64,000 bases of DNA from a plasmid: sequence record NZ_CP109675.1; one strand, 5' to 3'. Positions 42,001 to 48,000 of this stretch are shown here, piece after piece (positions within the stretch are counted from its first letter, which is position 1; each line of letters opens with the position of its first letter). The position numbers were made by a program.

Positions 42001-45000
42001 AAGCGAAGCGCTCTTTTCGGCCCCTTCTTATCGGGTACAGGTGAGGGGAGATAACACAATATATAGAAGAAAAAGCAGCTGACGGAGTGGCATATCTTGT
42101 ATTTTCGTGCCGCTGCGCGCCGGGGCGTTTCCGTAAGATCCGGAACAACCTTTTTTCGGATCTCAGGAGTGGAAGAGAACGATTATTGCAGAATAAGCAC
42201 AAAAAACAGTGAATTGTTGTTATGAGTAGATTATTGCTATAAGTATCGCAATTTGAATTAATTATTAACAACAAAGCAATTTAACAGCGACCCCATCCGG
42301 GGTCACCTTAATTTTGCTCAGCGATGTTCAAACCGGGCCACCAGTGGACCAGTGATTTCCATCTCCATTTCCCAGAGCGTTGTCATCACGCCTTCAAGTG
42401 GATTGTCACTACTGCTGTAGAAGGTGTTAAAAAGGGTTCCATCCGGGTACCTGAACAGCCTGAGTTCACCGAAGGATTCCGCGCTGACCATAACCGAAAA
42501 TTCCTGTTCGGAATTGAGGACAAGGTAAATAAGACAGTTATTGATCCTGAAGGGCAGAGTGCGGCTACCTCTGGCTGAAACATCAACCTGTATGCTAAAC
42601 GCGTCATGCCTTTCCGGCTGATAAACCAGTTCCCTCAGTTCTTCGCTAAAGCGGGAACCATAGCTCACCAGTATGTAATACTGCTGATCGGCGGACCGTT
42701 GCGCGACTTTCATTAACAGTGTTTCGAGGTTTTTGACCTTCATCGTTAATTTAGCCTGTGATTGCCACAGTAAATTATGCAGTCTGTGGTAAATATTTGT
42801 CCTAACATCTGATACAGACGGAAAATCTCCGTAGAAATTACTATTAAGTTCTCTGGCAACATAATCTTTGGGAACACTCACAGGAATGTATCTCACCAGC
42901 CAGTTGCGATCGCATTCTGAATTTTGAGAAAAAGTGAAGTAGTTAAGCAGAGTATCTTCAGACAATACCCCAGGAAGTTCTTTTGTCAGACGAGTGTCGG
43001 TATTCCTGAGACGTTCAAGATCTACTTCGGCAGCAACGATATCTGCCACTTTGCTGCGACTGAAGACCTCAATGTATTTATCCAGAACGTCATTAAAGAA
43101 AACCACGTTCGTTGCATAATCCGCGTCTGAAATGATATAGCCTTCATAAGGGACTGAAGGATCACGTTTCAGCCGTTCAAGAACAGAAATTATTCTCACT
43201 TTACTGAAATAGGAAAACAACCCTCCCGCAAGGGCGTCATTAGCACGCTGCGTAACCTGCTCAGCAGGTCTGGCGAGCTTTATAGCCAGCAAGGAAAATG
43301 CTCCGTAGAGGCTCCCTAAATCCTCATGTACTCCTGTATACGTACGCCCCGGAATGTAAGGCCTTTCATTATATGAGTTCATAACCTCAATGGTTTCTGA
43401 TAGCCCGCTGTACCAGTTTGTATTCGCATGAAGATTACAGTGCTCAATTCTCAGTATCATATCAATGATATCGACAGAACGTCTGAACGCAGGTGTCAGC
43501 GTATCATGAGTGTCTCTTTCTTCATATAATTCAGACGTAATGATATGGTTAACAAGATCAGCTAAATCTATCTTTTCTTGGGGTTCAAAATGCGCAATGA
43601 GATAACCTGCCATTAACAGGCGTAAATCAGACAAGGCATTTGCAAACATAATGGATAAGGCCGCATCTTTTTTATATGGACGCCCCCTGAGTAACATTGC
43701 CCACTGCGAGTCTGTTTCATCCAGAGACAGATAATCCGGAGTCAGGAAGAAACTGTGCCAGTGGTACTCTTCCTCCCAGTGCCGTGGAAACCGGCTCTGG
43801 TTAAACCAGAGACAGAGAACGTCGTGAGCATATCGTACGGAAGAAGCATTATCTGCAACCACTGACGGAATAAGCAGCCTGGCGGTGTTATGCAGATGAT
43901 ACATCAGGCGCCCAGTAGAATCTTCGCTCCCTGGTTTGCCAATGATCGAGCTCATACTCCAGCCCTCCCACAGGCCAATAAAATGGCGTACAAGTTCTTG
44001 ATGAGTTTGCTCCTGGCTGGCCGAGAGGGTGACACCCTGTCCTGCTTTCCACTCGTTTAACACATGCCATACTCTGAAAAGCGAGAGTAAAAATTGTCTG
44101 AAATCGGTAAAATGAGTGCTCTGTGTTTTTCTGTACACATGCAATGGAATGGCCATCGATTCACGGAAATATTCGCCTGAATATTCCGTTGATTTTACGG
44201 ATTCACGAAAAAACTTTCTCAATTCATAATGGAATGAATCGCTGAAAGTATGGCTAAAACCTGATTCTTTTACTTCATCCAGATAATTTTTATCAACCCC
44301 GTAGTTATAACTTCTTTTGATAGAGGTATAGGTATCTGTTAATCGTTCAATCCCTGTTCTGAAGACGCTAATATTTTTATCGTTAAGCGCATCGTAAGCC
44401 TCACCAAAGAAATCAAAAGTAATATCATCCAGATCCCTTTTGTTCTTAGGGCGCCCTGTTACAATACAACGGCTAAATAACCACCGCCACAATCCTGAAA
44501 CAGGCTTGACATTTCTCGATGACAATAAAGTTAGTTCACCAGAACGAACACCAAAGGAGGGCAAAATGATAATTTCCGCATCCTGCCCATCTACCGCCTC
44601 TAGCCTTCTTAGCAGAAATAAAAGTGGCCTTATATAAATATCTATAACAACATCACCTTTACTGATATTAGATTTGACATGAAGCATGTCGTCTTTCTCT
44701 GAGATTGAGTAAGGCAGTATTTTAATATTACCGAGGTAATCCTCACCTATATTTACCCCCGGATATCGGAGCCAAGCAAGAATATATGCTTTTTGAATAT
44801 AGTCATCCACTATCTGAGACAAAAAAAACTTATTCATTAGTCGATCGCGCTTGCTCTCATCCAGGACATTCAGACTCGAGACGAAGAACCAGATAGACAG
44901 AGTAATATTGAAAAGCATCCACACAAAAGCTGTTACGGCGAAAGAAGTATTAAGATATCCGTCACCTATAGATAACGTCATACCGCCCAACACGATAAAT

Positions 45001-48000
45001 GCAGCCAGTAAAAGACCACTCAGGCCCGCAAACATATATCCGGAATGAAGTTGATACGCGGACTGAATATGGATCCTTGCTGATTTCTTTTGAAACAAAA
45101 CACTTATAAGCCCCACAACCAGCGGAAAAACAATACCGATTATAGTCAACTGGCTACCCAGTAAATTAGACATCCAGTCTGAAAGCTTGGTAATGCCCTT
45201 AAAATGCTGCACAGCGAAAGGTTGCAATACAGGGCGAAAATATTCGACCACGCCAACAGCCCCGAAGGCTGCGGACCATAGAATTAGCATAGCCCGGACG
45301 TAATGGGTGGAGCAGGAAACAAGTATTCTCTCCACCGGGTTCCAGCGTAGTTTTTTGTAATCCCGGTTCGACTTCAGGCTCCGTCGGAGTTCAGCTCTCA
45401 CCTGCCATGAGAGACTTTTTAGAAGTTTTCCAAACATAGATATTCTGCGTGTTCCATAAGAAATTTTATGAATAATAAGCGGTAGTGACCTTTTTTTCTC
45501 TGGAAAATGTCACCCGATGCCCTTCGTGCAAAGTTCGTCTCCCTGTTATCCGATTTAGCCAGAAACCGGATCTGCGCGGCGGGAAACACGCAAAGGATAT
45601 GATAATTGAATCACTCACATAAAATCATACTAAGTGTGATATTTATCATTATTCATGAAATCACTTCTGATATGATATTAACTTAATATCAAATGAATCA
45701 TACGTGATATGATTTTATCGCAATCTGTTACTCATTATTCCAGGAGCGCAGCATGTCCAGTACCGGGCCGACACTGAATCTCACCTATGACGAATTGCTT
45801 GACGAAATCAAAAGCATCCTTCGCGTGCTCAGCCGGCACAGCAGTTCTTCCCGGGATGACTCTTCCACCACGGCTGCCTTTGACAGGGGGAGTTGCAGCG
45901 GCGCCATTGCGCTCTGGTATTCACTGGCATTATCAATGAGGGCGCCGGGGCGCGACTGTGAGGAGGATCGCAGACAGCTTCGGCTTCTGGCCGGACTGAT
46001 CCTCGAAAACCAGGAGCCGCCTGCCGATGGCCGCTGAGAAACACCGCCGCCCATCGCCGCTACAGCGGCGGGTGCTGATTGTGCTGGCCGCCCTCGGTGC
46101 GAAACGTCCGGGACCGGTGGCCACGCGGGATATTGAGCGGGTGCTGGAGCAGGGCGGGGACGCCCCGGTGTACGGGCCGAATCTCCGCGCCTCCTGCCGG
46201 CGCATGGAAGCTGCGGGCTGGCTGCGCACCCTGCGAGCCCCGAACCTGCAGCTGGCCGTCGAGCTGACGGACGCCGGCCGTGCGCTGGCCGCCCCGCTTC
46301 TCGCTGACGAACAGGCGCGCGTCCTGGCGGAGCAGCGCGCGACAACGGTCCGGGTTCTGCCCCTGATCCCGCCCGGCCAGGCAGACGAGGCTCACGACCG
46401 GCCGGTGGAGCTGGACGGCATCTGGCACCTGGCGTGCCGGGGCGACTACGTCATCCGCCTCGACGGGACCACCTGTCTCCAGCTGTGGAACACGGCCGGG
46501 CAGGTGACGCGTATGACGGGCGATCCCCTTCAGGTGGCGCAGTGGCTCCAGGCCTGCCACGGGGCGGGTATTGCGGTCCGGATGCAGATCAATGAGAGCA
46601 CCACGCCGGAGGCGGGCACGCTGATCGGTACCGAGCCGGAAGACCTGACCGGCACCTGGTACCGCCAGCTGGACGTCGCGCTTCAGGCACAGGGGATCAC
46701 CGGTCTGACTGAGGATATTCGCCTTGCCGTGGTGAGCCCTGAGGAAGCCCTCCGGTCGCTGCCGGCACCGGCGCGGCTGCTGCACGTTCTGCGCGAAAGC
46801 CCGGAGGCGTTCCCGCTCACGGCTGCCGGGTATGAAGAAGATTCCGGCGCCGCTCTGGACACCCTGCTGGCCGGGGCCGGATTCACGTCGGGACAGGCAC
46901 AGGAGCTGCGGCTGCACCGCATCCGCTGGGCTCAGATGAGTCAGGAAGACGCTGACCGGCGCGAACTGAACAGCCTGCTGGATGAGCTGGAACGGCGACA
47001 GCTGTACTGCAACCGCGAACAACTGACGGAGATTGTGTTTTCGCCGGTCCGTAAACCCGGCGAGCGCTGGACTGACCGTCTGCAGTGGCTCCTGATGACG
47101 GACGGATTCGGGTTCCGGAGTCCGCTCTCCCGTGACGCAGGCTCCAGGGCGCTGACGATCCTGGCCGGTTACACGGGGCAGGAGGTGGCGGACCATCTGG
47201 CCACGGTTATCGTCTGGAACGATGACAGCGCGGGGATGCCGTCATGAGCACAGGCAACGTCAATCTCATCGTCACCTGCACGCGCCGCAAAACCATAACA
47301 GCCGGTCAAACCGTCTTTCCATATGAACACGACGCCGGAAATGCTTATGAAGTCTGGCTGGAAAGGCTGGCCAGGGCGCGGAACGACGGCGCTGCCATAA
47401 CAGCAGGTGAACTGTATACGGGCCAGCACTGGAGCAGGGCTGCTGCGGCTGCAAAACGTACCGGCGCAGAGCTGTGGGTGATTTCAGCGGGTCTGGGGCT
47501 GCTGCACGTATCAGACCCGGTGGTCCCTTATGAGGCAACGTTCTCCTCGATGCCGTTTAGTCACAGCAGACTATGGGAAAGCCTGACAGCTTGCCCGCCT
47601 GCTGAACGACGGTATGCTTCCCTGAGGACGCTGATGCAGTCGAGGCCTGACGATCGGTTTGTGGTGGCCGCCTCTCCGGTGTACCTGCGTGCCGTCGATT
47701 CAGATCTGTATGCAGGAAGGGAGGCGCTCTGTACCCCGGAACAGCTTGTTGTGGTGACGTCAAAAGGTTACCAGGGAATCCTGAAGGGCAGCGTCATTTA
47801 TACCAGTGCAGACATGATAAATGCGCTCAACACGAATATGACTGGCCTCAATATCAGCTATGCCACTCAGTTACTTGTTAACGACGTATGTAAATAAGCA
47901 TCCAGGCAAGACGTAAGACAAACACTCACGACTTATTTTTGGTATACGTAGCTGAGAAACGATATCATAAGATATCAGGGAAATATTGCGTGCTCTGCTT

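Follow-up and report, generated by a model that had tools for sequence, protein, structure and literature searches.

A widespread family of membrane proteins with a predicted capsid-like C-terminal fold and a possible role in anti-phage defence

The window analyzed here is a 64,000-nucleotide stretch of a plasmid (NZ_CP109675.1). Its minus strand carries at 42318..45437 a single open reading frame which, according to the ORF list and its translation, starts with ATG and codes for a 1039-aa protein, in agreement with the very long ORF reported in the initial annotation. The protein corresponds to WP_012477567.1, annotated as hypothetical, and is 100% identical on plasmids pYRW13-125, pK245 (NC_010886) and others. 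It has many homologues, among which the N-terminal MxGxxLxxL is kept, and its length and such conservation rule out a chance ORF. The gene and its surroundings comprise the following features:

42289..42304, minus strand: GC-rich hairpin GACCCC-GGAT-GGGGTC (terminator scan and sequence), 14 nt past the stop codon, with an imperfect T-tract
42318..45437, minus strand: complete gene for the 1039-aa protein, with its stop codon at 42318-42320
42321..42950, minus strand: residues 830-1039, domain with a predicted HK97-like fold (phage major capsid protein/encapsulin)
42951..43127, minus strand: residues 771-829, linker of two long helices before the capsid-like core (AF2 helices 771-802 and 807-827 in both models)
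43128..44432, minus strand: residues 336-770, all-alpha solenoid-like domain
44433..44861, minus strand: residues 193-335, juxtamembrane helix and small beta domain (AF2 secondary structure; strands within 238-328)
44862..45302, minus strand: residues 46-192, four-helix membrane domain (hydropathy, AF2 helices)
45303..45437, minus strand: residues 1-45, basic N-terminal tail (charge count: 11 K+R, 3 D+E)
45438..45752, no strand assigned: divergent AT-rich intergenic region of 315 bp, which must contain the promoter of the 1039-aa gene

Judging from its sequence, the hairpin is likely the terminator of the 1039-aa gene, which would make the gene monocistronic. The description as an island of about 38% GC goes too far: the ORF is at 43.7% GC and the whole interval 42318-45752 at 43.1%, with a window mean of 51.7%, and only the 315-bp spacer is as low as 36.8%. 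The left flank has 52% GC and the right-hand operon 63.5%, with a local peak of 72%. This operon of three genes (45753-47897), coding for proteins of 94 aa, 406 aa and 217 aa (DpdC-like), is indeed transcribed divergently from the 1039-aa gene across exactly 315 bp with repeats. The scan of this spacer for sigma-70-like sites yielded none at or above threshold. The direct and inverted repeats, of the type AATCAT...TGATATGAT, are all found at 45604-45724, beside the operon start, and probably belong to the operon.

The shared repeat-bearing spacer is one reason to consider that the 1039-aa protein acts together with the high-GC operon or under its control, the latter as the initial annotation had supposed. 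The pair is also intact at a minimum of 99.9% identity on about ten plasmids. In a group with 88-89% identity, the family gene is still accompanied by the first small gene. The closest plasmid group, however, keeps only this first small gene, the DNA match stopping inside the second one; the repeats are concentrated on the operon side of the spacer; the downstream genes differ in locus L040; and none of the other contexts examined (E. coli IncF plasmids, the ICE, the satellite, the prophage, the R-M operons and the chromosomal loci) contains the operon. Furthermore, a GC difference of 20 points indicates that the operon and the 1039-aa gene have separate origins. On comparative grounds the operon was therefore rejected as a conserved partner, and a functional or regulatory link between the two appears very improbable.

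Nor is the protein an orphan, as it had been called: one search returned 105 homologues, and a profile search yielded 798 clusters at 50% identity (341 at E<1e-30), nearly all of them with proteins of 1030-1150 aa and a single architecture. Of 72,556 plasmids, 405 carry a family member; among 5426 complete E. coli genomes, the number is 228 (about 4%), with the gene almost always on a plasmid. The GenBank phage collection yielded no homologue. A split or IS-interrupted gene was observed at seven of 23 genome loci, and IS2 insertions and many truncated cluster members were also encountered; overall, the distribution looks patchy and costly. Literature searches by accession, by a peptide motif looked up in the DefensePredictor supplements, and for capsid-fold domains in defence or membrane proteins did not retrieve a description of the family, and no measured phage protection by any member was found in the searchable literature. 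The 1039-aa protein thus belongs to a widespread, previously undescribed family, and, whatever its function, an architecture of 1000 residues that is conserved across 798 clusters and lacks any annotated domain represents a sizeable gap in the knowledge of protein families.

Pfam and NCBIfam gave no match to the 1039-aa protein, and a Pfam scan of 39 family members gave nothing usable. The PADLOC models (2023 release, E<=1), a check proposed at the outset, produced only one weak and non-specific match, to CARF_HEPN (E=0.014, residues 727-816). A HEPN RNase was rejected, as the Rx4-6H strings lack conservation (of 170 sequences, 2% have H704 and 6% have H670), and a P-loop NTPase, Tmn or KAP assignment was rejected for lack of a Walker A motif, of a KAP_NTPase/AAA match in Pfam and of a Tmn match in PADLOC. 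The long region that follows the membrane helices (about 850 aa) is thus devoid of standard motifs, as first described. Homology to a transporter, an adhesin or a tra protein, which would have spoken against defence, was searched for and not found. A few family members bear the automatic labels “chromate transporter” or “MFS transporter”. A transporter was nevertheless rejected, since neither the query nor the 39 members match Chromate_transp or MFS in Pfam, and four hydrophobic segments are present as opposed to a layout of 10-12 helices.

These four segments, and not the approximately five initially counted, were located by hydropathy at residues 46-67, 97-115, 139-157 and 168-192. By the positive-inside rule, the basic tail preceding them would be cytoplasmic; four membrane helices would then return the chain to the same side, so that the 850 or so residues beyond them would be cytoplasmic as well. 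No part of the protein is better conserved than the membrane domain: it has the lowest column entropy (1.9-2.4, compared with about 3 elsewhere), retains 57-100% identity where other domains drop to 21-40%, and contains positions Q96, P105, V107, Y128, G138, S140, L144, W173, N177 and F184, each conserved in at least 90% of 170 sequences. Such conservation, combined with the polar or small intrahelical residues Q96, P105, S140 and N177, speaks for the domain being more than an anchor, and we propose that it acts as the effector; formation of a pore by it would be purely conjectural.

The beta domain is hypervariable (windows 241-270 and 301-330), and the capsid-like domain is also fast-evolving: among relatives with an overall identity of 83-90%, windows 811-960 go down to 50-73%. 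These two domains diverge fastest among close relatives and do so in a mosaic pattern, exemplified by P0002, which is 75% identical in the beta region and 94-99% identical elsewhere; by analogy, this divergence resembles that of specificity modules in immune proteins. Variants P0176, P0187, P0208 and P0217 are without the beta domain; they were rejected as N-terminal effector swaps, since the membrane domain is kept and only the beta domain is missing. The solenoid carries a conserved polar/aromatic set (W463, W490-E491-x-W493, H514, D539, W544, N600, D604, R663, G697-R698-x-Y700), the polar members of which (E491, H514, D539, D604, R663, R698) could form an enzymatic or ligand site that the defence model ignores. 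As for the linker at 771-829, one may speculate that it is analogous to an N-arm or a delta domain.

In the predicted models, the C-terminal domain displays the HK97 core fold, with A and P domains, spine helix and beta-hairpin, confirming at the level of structure prediction that residues 830-1039 share the fold of tailed-phage major capsid proteins. We propose that this domain is a cytoplasmic sensor or interaction module. A capsid PHROG search with 27 C-terminal sequences gave no match, nor did PDB sequences match the profiles of the whole protein or of its C-terminus. The fold is therefore common to the HK97-type capsid proteins and encapsulins (T4 gp24, lambda gpE, HK97 gp5, T. maritima encapsulin) without a sequence-family relation, and, whereas those are free shell subunits, here it is the C-terminal domain of a 1039-aa inner-membrane protein. 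Formation of a closed shell by such a protein seems sterically unlikely, and none of the loci examined has portal, protease/scaffold, terminase or encapsulin cargo genes beside the family gene.

HK97 folds naturally form pentamers and hexamers, as in capsids and encapsulins, and oligomerization is the best-known property of the fold now confirmed in the models. This speaks for a defence protein in which the capsid-fold domain is merely a self-assembly module, five or six copies of which would bring the four-helix domains together into a ring-shaped channel, while the signal would be sensed elsewhere: by the variable beta domain, by the polar pocket in the solenoid or, as in Kiwa, through perturbation of the membrane. 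It would also fit the strictly conserved polar/aromatic set of the solenoid, which resembles a binding or catalytic site, and the fact that the beta domain is missing in some members and the C-terminus is kept in all. A structural module is expected to be conserved, however, yet the capsid domain is among the two fastest-diverging mosaic parts, and we consider this arrangement unlikely.

In all loci examined, the family gene is solitary with variable neighbours; no conserved partner gene was found in them, and the genes that recur beside it are limited to type I R-M subunits and an integrase fragment of 200 aa, which is shared by two Pectobacterium/Pantoea loci. The carriers are IncF/IncI plasmids, ICEs, a P4-like satellite, the ends of P2-like prophages, and type I restriction operons. 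The Salmonella ICE copy adjoins McrBC and type I R-M, the copies on IncF plasmids adjoin VapBC and an S-4TM effector, or CcdAB, and neighbours elsewhere include a KAP NTPase and, in the P4-like satellite, an AAA_15/21 ATPase. In P2-like prophages, the gene is found at the end of the tail modules, following tail gene D and outside the head module, in near-identical layouts that may represent a single event. Some chromosomal copies have no defence neighbours (Kosakonia, and Photobacterium except for a patatin gene).

In five loci (L030, L032, L036, L033 and L049), the family gene is inserted in the order hsdM-hsdS-family gene-hsdR, with junctions of -50 to +8 nt. These copies, embedded between hsdS and hsdR, come from Aliikangiella, Kangiella, two Psychromonas genomes and one IMG/VR contig, and probably result from one embedding event, since their hsdM genes are 77-80% identical. 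The copy in the window is not itself within an R-M operon. Among known defences, PrrC lies within EcoprrI. For genes located within R-M or Hma operons, a defence role has been shown more than once (PMC11411939; bioRxiv 10.1101/2024.01.29.577857), including TgvAB of V. cholerae VPI-2 (PMC11411939) and the HEC systems (bioRxiv 10.1101/2024.01.29.577857). In the five loci, the family gene is similarly embedded and overlaps or abuts the adjacent frames; the 1039-aa protein, however, is unrelated to PrrC, TgvAB and HEC and has no ABC ATPase, GmrSD or anticodon-nuclease domains. Taken together, these settings (plasmids, prophages, the interior of restriction operons) suggest that the family represents a new type of defence against phages.

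The same loci were considered under the view that the gene is mobile-element cargo with another membrane function and a C-terminus exapted from a capsid or encapsulin gene; it could then be a channel or transporter, an envelope-stress factor, a plasmid/ICE competition or exclusion factor, or an addiction module. No known defence model in PADLOC is matched, some chromosomal loci lie among ordinary metabolic and regulatory genes, and the transporter labels mentioned above would agree with it; moreover, conjugation also elicits a response from Kiwa-like systems (PMC11785009), and plasmids instead of phages could accordingly be the target. On the other hand, the 39 scanned members contain no Pfam transporter domain, four helices with 850 cytoplasmic residues are unlike a transporter layout, and the recurrence of the gene within R-M operons, at the ends of prophages, in the satellite and in ICE defence spots would otherwise be hard to explain, making a role unrelated to phages rather improbable.

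Our leading interpretation, which is still tentative, is a single-protein anti-phage defence in which the capsid-like domain would interact with the assembling phage head and the membrane domain would serve as the effector. The capsid-like domain, probably together with the beta domain, would be a molecular mimic that docks onto, or co-assembles with, late head-assembly intermediates (capsomers; scaffold, protease or portal complexes). Docking would cause the 1039-aa protein to cluster or rearrange, whereupon the conserved membrane domain would open or disrupt the inner membrane, and the infection would be aborted before progeny release. Head assembly is an established infection signal, as HK97-fold capsid proteins directly trigger bacterial immunity by Avs8A (PMC12236752). 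Points against the interpretation are that no PADLOC model matches, that the copies in R-M operons probably, and those in P2-like prophages possibly, each go back to one event, that some chromosomal copies stand apart from defence genes, that GenBank phages yielded no homologue, and that the conserved polar residues of the solenoid have no place in it. For this scheme, the topology, the defence function, its trigger and the effector activity are all ones that we infer. As to the defence effector originally proposed, a large membrane-anchored protein without an enzymatic motif and a defence-leaning context are borne out, and the term Abi itself is one that we infer. A more specific form of the idea, possible but somewhat more doubtful, is that a capsid fold acquired by bacteria from their own viruses and joined to a membrane-killing module constitutes an immune receptor by structural mimicry, a host-encoded pseudo-capsid subunit recognized by, or inserted into, assembling heads.

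Direct interference without abortion of the infection would dispense with membrane killing: the capsid-like domain would co-assemble with capsid subunits of the phage and poison or mis-size procapsids as the satellite protein Ccm does, or tether them to the membrane, with the membrane domain only localizing and immobilizing the trap and the cell surviving. Being the most conserved part and having polar intramembrane residues, the membrane domain exceeds the needs of a tether, however, and the gene is often disrupted, which suggests that it is costly or toxic, as suicidal effectors typically are; we therefore regard this outcome as improbable.

In the more specific, structural-mimicry form of the leading interpretation, a pseudo-capsid would detect and/or sabotage any tailed phage at a step that is hard to mutate away from, in the first cellular use of the HK97 fold that does not form a shell, and by a new sensing principle employing a copy of the viral part instead of a binder. 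If the leading interpretation is correct, it would reveal an unrecognized defence family on clinically important IncF/IncI plasmids of Klebsiella, Enterobacter and E. coli, including ST131-type plasmids, with a bearing on phage therapy and plasmid ecology, and would extend to immunity the exaptation of virus parts known from encapsulins, gene transfer agents and tailocins.

Comparison with known systems reveals partial similarities. Ccm of SaPIbov5 and other satellite capsid homologues are soluble, complete capsid proteins which belong to a packaging module and serve the spread of the satellite, whereas the 1039-aa protein is predicted to be membrane-bound, is fused to about 830 unrelated residues, and resides on plasmids and chromosomes without packaging genes. 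PifA, responsible for T7 exclusion by the F plasmid, is a membrane-associated single protein which aborts infection with membrane leakage when triggered by the T7 capsid protein gp10 or by gp1.2, and for which a nucleotide-binding motif has been reported. The 1039-aa protein is similarly plasmid-borne, membrane-associated and single; unlike PifA, it has no nucleotide-binding motif, and PifA is not known to have a capsid-like domain. As far as the PADLOC models cover PifA, they gave no match, and no pif-like neighbours were seen. For CapRel-SJ46 and Lit, the phage major capsid protein is the infection signal. These two and Avs8A (PMC12236752) are a soluble NTPase, toxin or protease of unrelated folds, with neither an HK97 fold nor a membrane effector domain.

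The membrane module itself finds parallels in Kiwa KwaA, Tmn, RexB and the S-4TM effectors, in each of which a small inner-membrane module of several helices is presumed to act as executioner or sensor (KwaA has four helices; PMC11785009), but here it is fused to a very large cytoplasmic region without a P-loop. Neither a KwaA profile match (PADLOC, E<=1) nor a DUF4868 KwaB neighbour was detected. Similarly, Pfam and PADLOC gave no match to S_4TM (PF18159), and an S_4TM protein occurs only as a neighbour of the family gene on an E. coli plasmid.

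The membrane protein gene proved to be a single long ORF, as the initial annotation had it; the frame is uninterrupted and has an ATG start:

42318..45437, minus strand: gene for the 1039-aa protein (the family gene)

It had also been described as an orphan with about five N-terminal transmembrane helices, lying in an island of about 38% GC. The gene has 43.7% GC, compared with 51.7% across the window and 52% over the 10 kb on its left, and only the 315-bp spacer between it and a divergent three-gene operon is that AT-rich (36.8%); hydropathy shows four membrane segments (46-67, 97-115, 139-157 and 168-192). 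Nor is the protein an orphan: a word-indexed search returned 105 homologues of ~1030-1100 aa each, from Enterobacterales, Pseudoalteromonas, Photobacterium and a Sedimenticola symbiont, none of them with a Pfam domain, and a profile search through 1.84 billion representatives gave 798 clusters at E<=1e-3, 341 of them at E<=1e-30, nearly all of them full-length matches (1030-1150 aa). The 26 loci collected from one genome per species reach Shewanella, Alteromonas, Kangiella, Aliikangiella, Psychromonas, Vibrio, Psychrobacter, Oceanisphaera, Bermanella and Desulforhopalus. Members are called 'hypothetical' in their source records and now and then receive the automatic names 'chromate transporter' or 'MFS transporter', labels that have no domain match, of a transporter or otherwise, behind them. 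The 1039-aa protein matches nothing in Pfam or NCBIfam and lacks a Walker A motif, in keeping with the earlier view that it contains no standard nucleotide-binding motif, and PDB sequences were matched neither by the whole-protein profile nor by the C-terminal profile. PADLOC, which the initial annotation had named as a check, yielded one match, CARF_HEPN at a noise-level E=0.014; the Rx4-6H motif implied by an HEPN RNase reading is not conserved, and membership in the Kiwa, Tmn, HEPN, S-4TM and chromate/MFS families failed every test run. The family is large and unannotated, and the gene is real; a literature search, whose incomplete coverage leaves an earlier description possible, returned no mention of the family accessions.

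The charges flanking the membrane segments are distributed unevenly, with 11 K+R in the N-terminal tail, three K+R and no acidic residue in loop 116-138, and no K+R in loop 158-167, which by the positive-inside rule should place the N-terminus and all residues past 192 in the cytoplasm. An AlphaFold2 model built on an alignment of 39 sequences (mean pLDDT 85.3, pTM 0.71) consists of a helical membrane bundle to ~230, a small beta domain (238-330), an all-alpha region (336-830) that includes the solenoid and an alpha/beta C-terminus. Comparison of the C-terminal domain with known structures gave the following values, which fall in the range known from pairs of bona fide but distant HK97-fold proteins:

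T4 gp24: 10.2
lambda gpE: 9.9
LME-1: 9.5
encapsulins: 8.8-9.3
SaPIbov5 Ccm: 8.5
HK97 gp5: 8.3-8.4
herpesvirus capsid floor domains: 8.0-8.2
a gene-transfer-agent capsid: 8.1
P22 coat: 7.7

The order of secondary-structure elements (hairpin 835-856, helix 875-892, two helix-strand units and a run of strands) would fit the E-loop, spine helix, A-domain and P-domain, and an HK97 fold is predicted for residues ~830-1039 with good confidence. No link between this domain and capsid families was found at the sequence level. The protein shares the fold of the HK97 superfamily, while neither its sequence nor its genomic context places it there, so that it has a capsid-protein fold without being a capsid protein. 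No report of an HK97 fold within a cellular membrane or defence protein turned up in the literature covered by our incomplete search, and as far as we can tell the predicted architecture is unprecedented. The two least confident loops of the model, 670-672 and 699-701 (~43335-43430; pLDDT <50), lie near or include the nearly invariant residues R663 and G697-R698-x-Y700; a loop that is conserved yet flexible hints at a binding or gating element, outside the mechanism proposed below.

Conservation is unevenly spread over these domains. Among 170 diverged full-length members, the residues conserved in at least 90% of sequences are Q96, P105, V107, Y128, G138, S140, L144, W173, N177 and F184 in the membrane domain, and W463, W490-E491-x-W493, H514, D539, W544, N600, D604, R663 and G697-R698-x-Y700 in the solenoid, with the lowest column entropy in membrane block 81-160. 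Across relatives of falling identity the membrane domain retains 57-100%, and the beta and capsid-like domains drop to 21-46%. Close plasmid alleles differ from that of the window in mosaic fashion, with hypervariable windows 241-270, 301-330 and 811-960 adjoining windows that are 100% identical:

allele P0002: beta domain 75%, elsewhere 94-99%
allele P0009: capsid-like domain 74%, beta domain 93%
allele P0004: both variable domains 76-77%, solenoid 94%

Such a pattern would be expected of a constant effector combined with exchangeable specificity modules. As the best-supported reading we tentatively propose a one-protein anti-phage defence by capsid mimicry, in which the conserved four-helix domain would be an effector that acts on the inner membrane, with specificity supplied by the variable beta and capsid-like domains and the solenoid as the link between these parts; the capsid-like domain would be bound by, or built into, phage head assembly intermediates, and the membrane domain would be switched on as a result. 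Capsid homologues encoded by satellites, such as Ccm, illustrate that foreign HK97 subunits can join a phage assembly pathway. Since the capsid-like domain would reside in the compartment of head assembly, mimicry is the most economical mechanism, and capsid proteins are already known to trigger immunity in the case of Avs8A (PMC12236752). The same fold might be a mere oligomerisation scaffold, with sensing located elsewhere, which we regard as unlikely; a non-abortive version, in which the domain poisons or tethers procapsids, appears slightly less likely still.

Genomic context repeatedly points to defence. The most telling placement is inside a type I restriction operon, where the family gene lies between hsdS and hsdR at five loci (Aliikangiella marina, Kangiella aquimarina, Psychromonas aquatilis, a Psychromonas MAG and one IMG/VR contig), the junctions ranging from -50 to +8 nt. 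The hsdM-hsdS-[family gene]-hsdR cassette, common to marine Gammaproteobacteria, occupies:

L030:7040-16488
L032:7033-19518
L036:6872-16635
L033:2447-21322 (insertion interrupting the embedded gene)
L049:6914-16553 (hsdR split)

The hsdM genes of these loci are 77-80% identical and the embedded proteins, compared for three of the five loci, 52-58%, which probably reflects one old cassette with a faster-evolving embedded gene. In Kangiella, McrB-McrC follows the restriction-modification genes. Experiments have shown genes located within restriction or Hma operons to be defences, as with TgvAB (PMC11411939) and the HEC systems (bioRxiv 10.1101/2024.01.29.577857). In a Salmonella ICE the family gene comes directly after McrBC, with hsdR nearby, and in Pectobacterium and Pantoea stewartii, the latter within a P4-like satellite, it follows an integrase fragment beside a KAP NTPase or AAA_15/21 ATPase. 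This fragment, which has the same length at both loci and precedes the family gene by 276 bp, may form with it a small mobile two-gene unit or be the remnant of an integration module:

L003:9122-9724, Pectobacterium brasiliense: 200-aa ORF with Phage_integrase domain
L011:9122-9724, Pantoea stewartii: 200-aa ORF with Phage_integrase domain

On E. coli IncF plasmids the neighbours are VapBC, an AAA ATPase, an S-4TM effector pair and DUF3800, or else repA on one side and an Rpn/resolvase region on the other; on an IncFIB plasmid CcdAB adjoins the gene. On IncF plasmids of ST131 type (E. coli plasmid p2_0.1, L009:355-2286) the family gene is flanked by the gene of an S-4TM pore-forming effector and its 331-aa partner, together with VapBC, DUF3800 and an AAA ATPase of 712 aa, which constitute another compact plasmid defence/addiction island. 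In the four IMG/VR contigs checked (L043, L045, L048 and L051) the family gene directly follows gene D, with P2-type tail sheath, tube and tape-measure genes beside it, which is a prophage-end cargo site. Neighbours at the Kosakonia, Photobacterium and Pseudoalteromonas chromosomal loci are ordinary or weakly suggestive. Overall, the earlier Abi-type guess is supported in part, several of its details having been wrong, and we consider some kind of anti-phage or anti-mobile-element defence probable; a membrane function of another sort would suit the ordinary loci, and we give it little weight next to the recurrent defence settings.

By tblastn, the family is present on 405 of 72,556 plasmids (333 full-length; 246 on conjugative plasmids) and in none of the GenBank phages. 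A close DNA relative occurs in 228 of 5426 complete E. coli genomes, 231 of the 236 copies being on plasmids. About one third of genome copies are frameshifted, truncated or IS-interrupted (L017, L019, L031, L033, L034, L038 and L039, and in E. coli also H71 and H74); the gene is split or IS-interrupted at seven of 23 genome loci, IS2 has inserted into it on E. coli plasmids and on one chromosome, and many cluster members are truncated. This suggests recurrent inactivation, and distribution and decay together would fit a gene that is costly and subject to fluctuating selection.

The plasmid itself has a backbone with IncI-type transfer genes and a MOBP relaxase, and its leading region carries ardA, psiAB and hok; next come umuDC, parM, a ParA-like gene, a resolvase and a string of cargo genes, including the family gene, that ends in ISKpn19-qnrS1. 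The 5-kb region around the family gene is 100% identical to Yokenella regensburgei plasmid pYRW13-125 and an Enterobacter hormaechei plasmid. Klebsiella plasmids match it at 99.9% identity; one of them is NC_010886, whose copy of the protein is listed as 'hypothetical protein' WP_012477567.1. A GC-rich hairpin 14 nt past the stop codon makes the gene look monocistronic, and the ~560 bp between this likely terminator and the next annotated gene (41759-42317) carry no RefSeq annotation. Two features lie downstream:

40372-41037, minus strand: 221-aa homologue of the PADLOC candidate single-gene defence PDC-S67 (E=7e-40), 1.3 kb from the family gene
41972-42274, minus strand: 100-aa ORF with TTG start, without a family match

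Because of the PDC-S67 homologue, this stretch looks like a small defence island. On the other side lies the operon to which the initial annotation had linked the gene:

45753-47897, plus strand: three-gene operon, mean 63.5% GC with a local peak of 72%, within a 52% GC plasmid

It encodes a 94-aa product, a 406-aa product with a weak N-terminal PaaX-like match as its sole match, and a 217-aa DUF6884/DpdC-like product (PADLOC DpdC, E=2.6e-43) that is accompanied by no other dpd genes. The spacer does contain repeats, as had been noted, and all of them fall within 45604-45724, adjoining the operon, as three imperfect, operator-like AATCAT..TGATATGAT copies. Functional coupling of the two units, for which their divergent adjacency might speak, is contradicted by the comparative data, in which the family gene is solitary everywhere and has no conserved partner in the examined loci, and we consider it very improbable; the operon appears to be a foreign module in its own right, a candidate for DNA modification or defence. 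Beyond it, a gene of ~40% GC (48063-50084, plus strand) encodes a 673-aa protein in which an AT3 acyltransferase is joined to an SGNH domain; a gene of the thermonuclease family and one for an SOS-response-associated peptidase come next. Proteins of the AT3-SGNH type usually O-acetylate surface polysaccharides, which could alter phage receptors.
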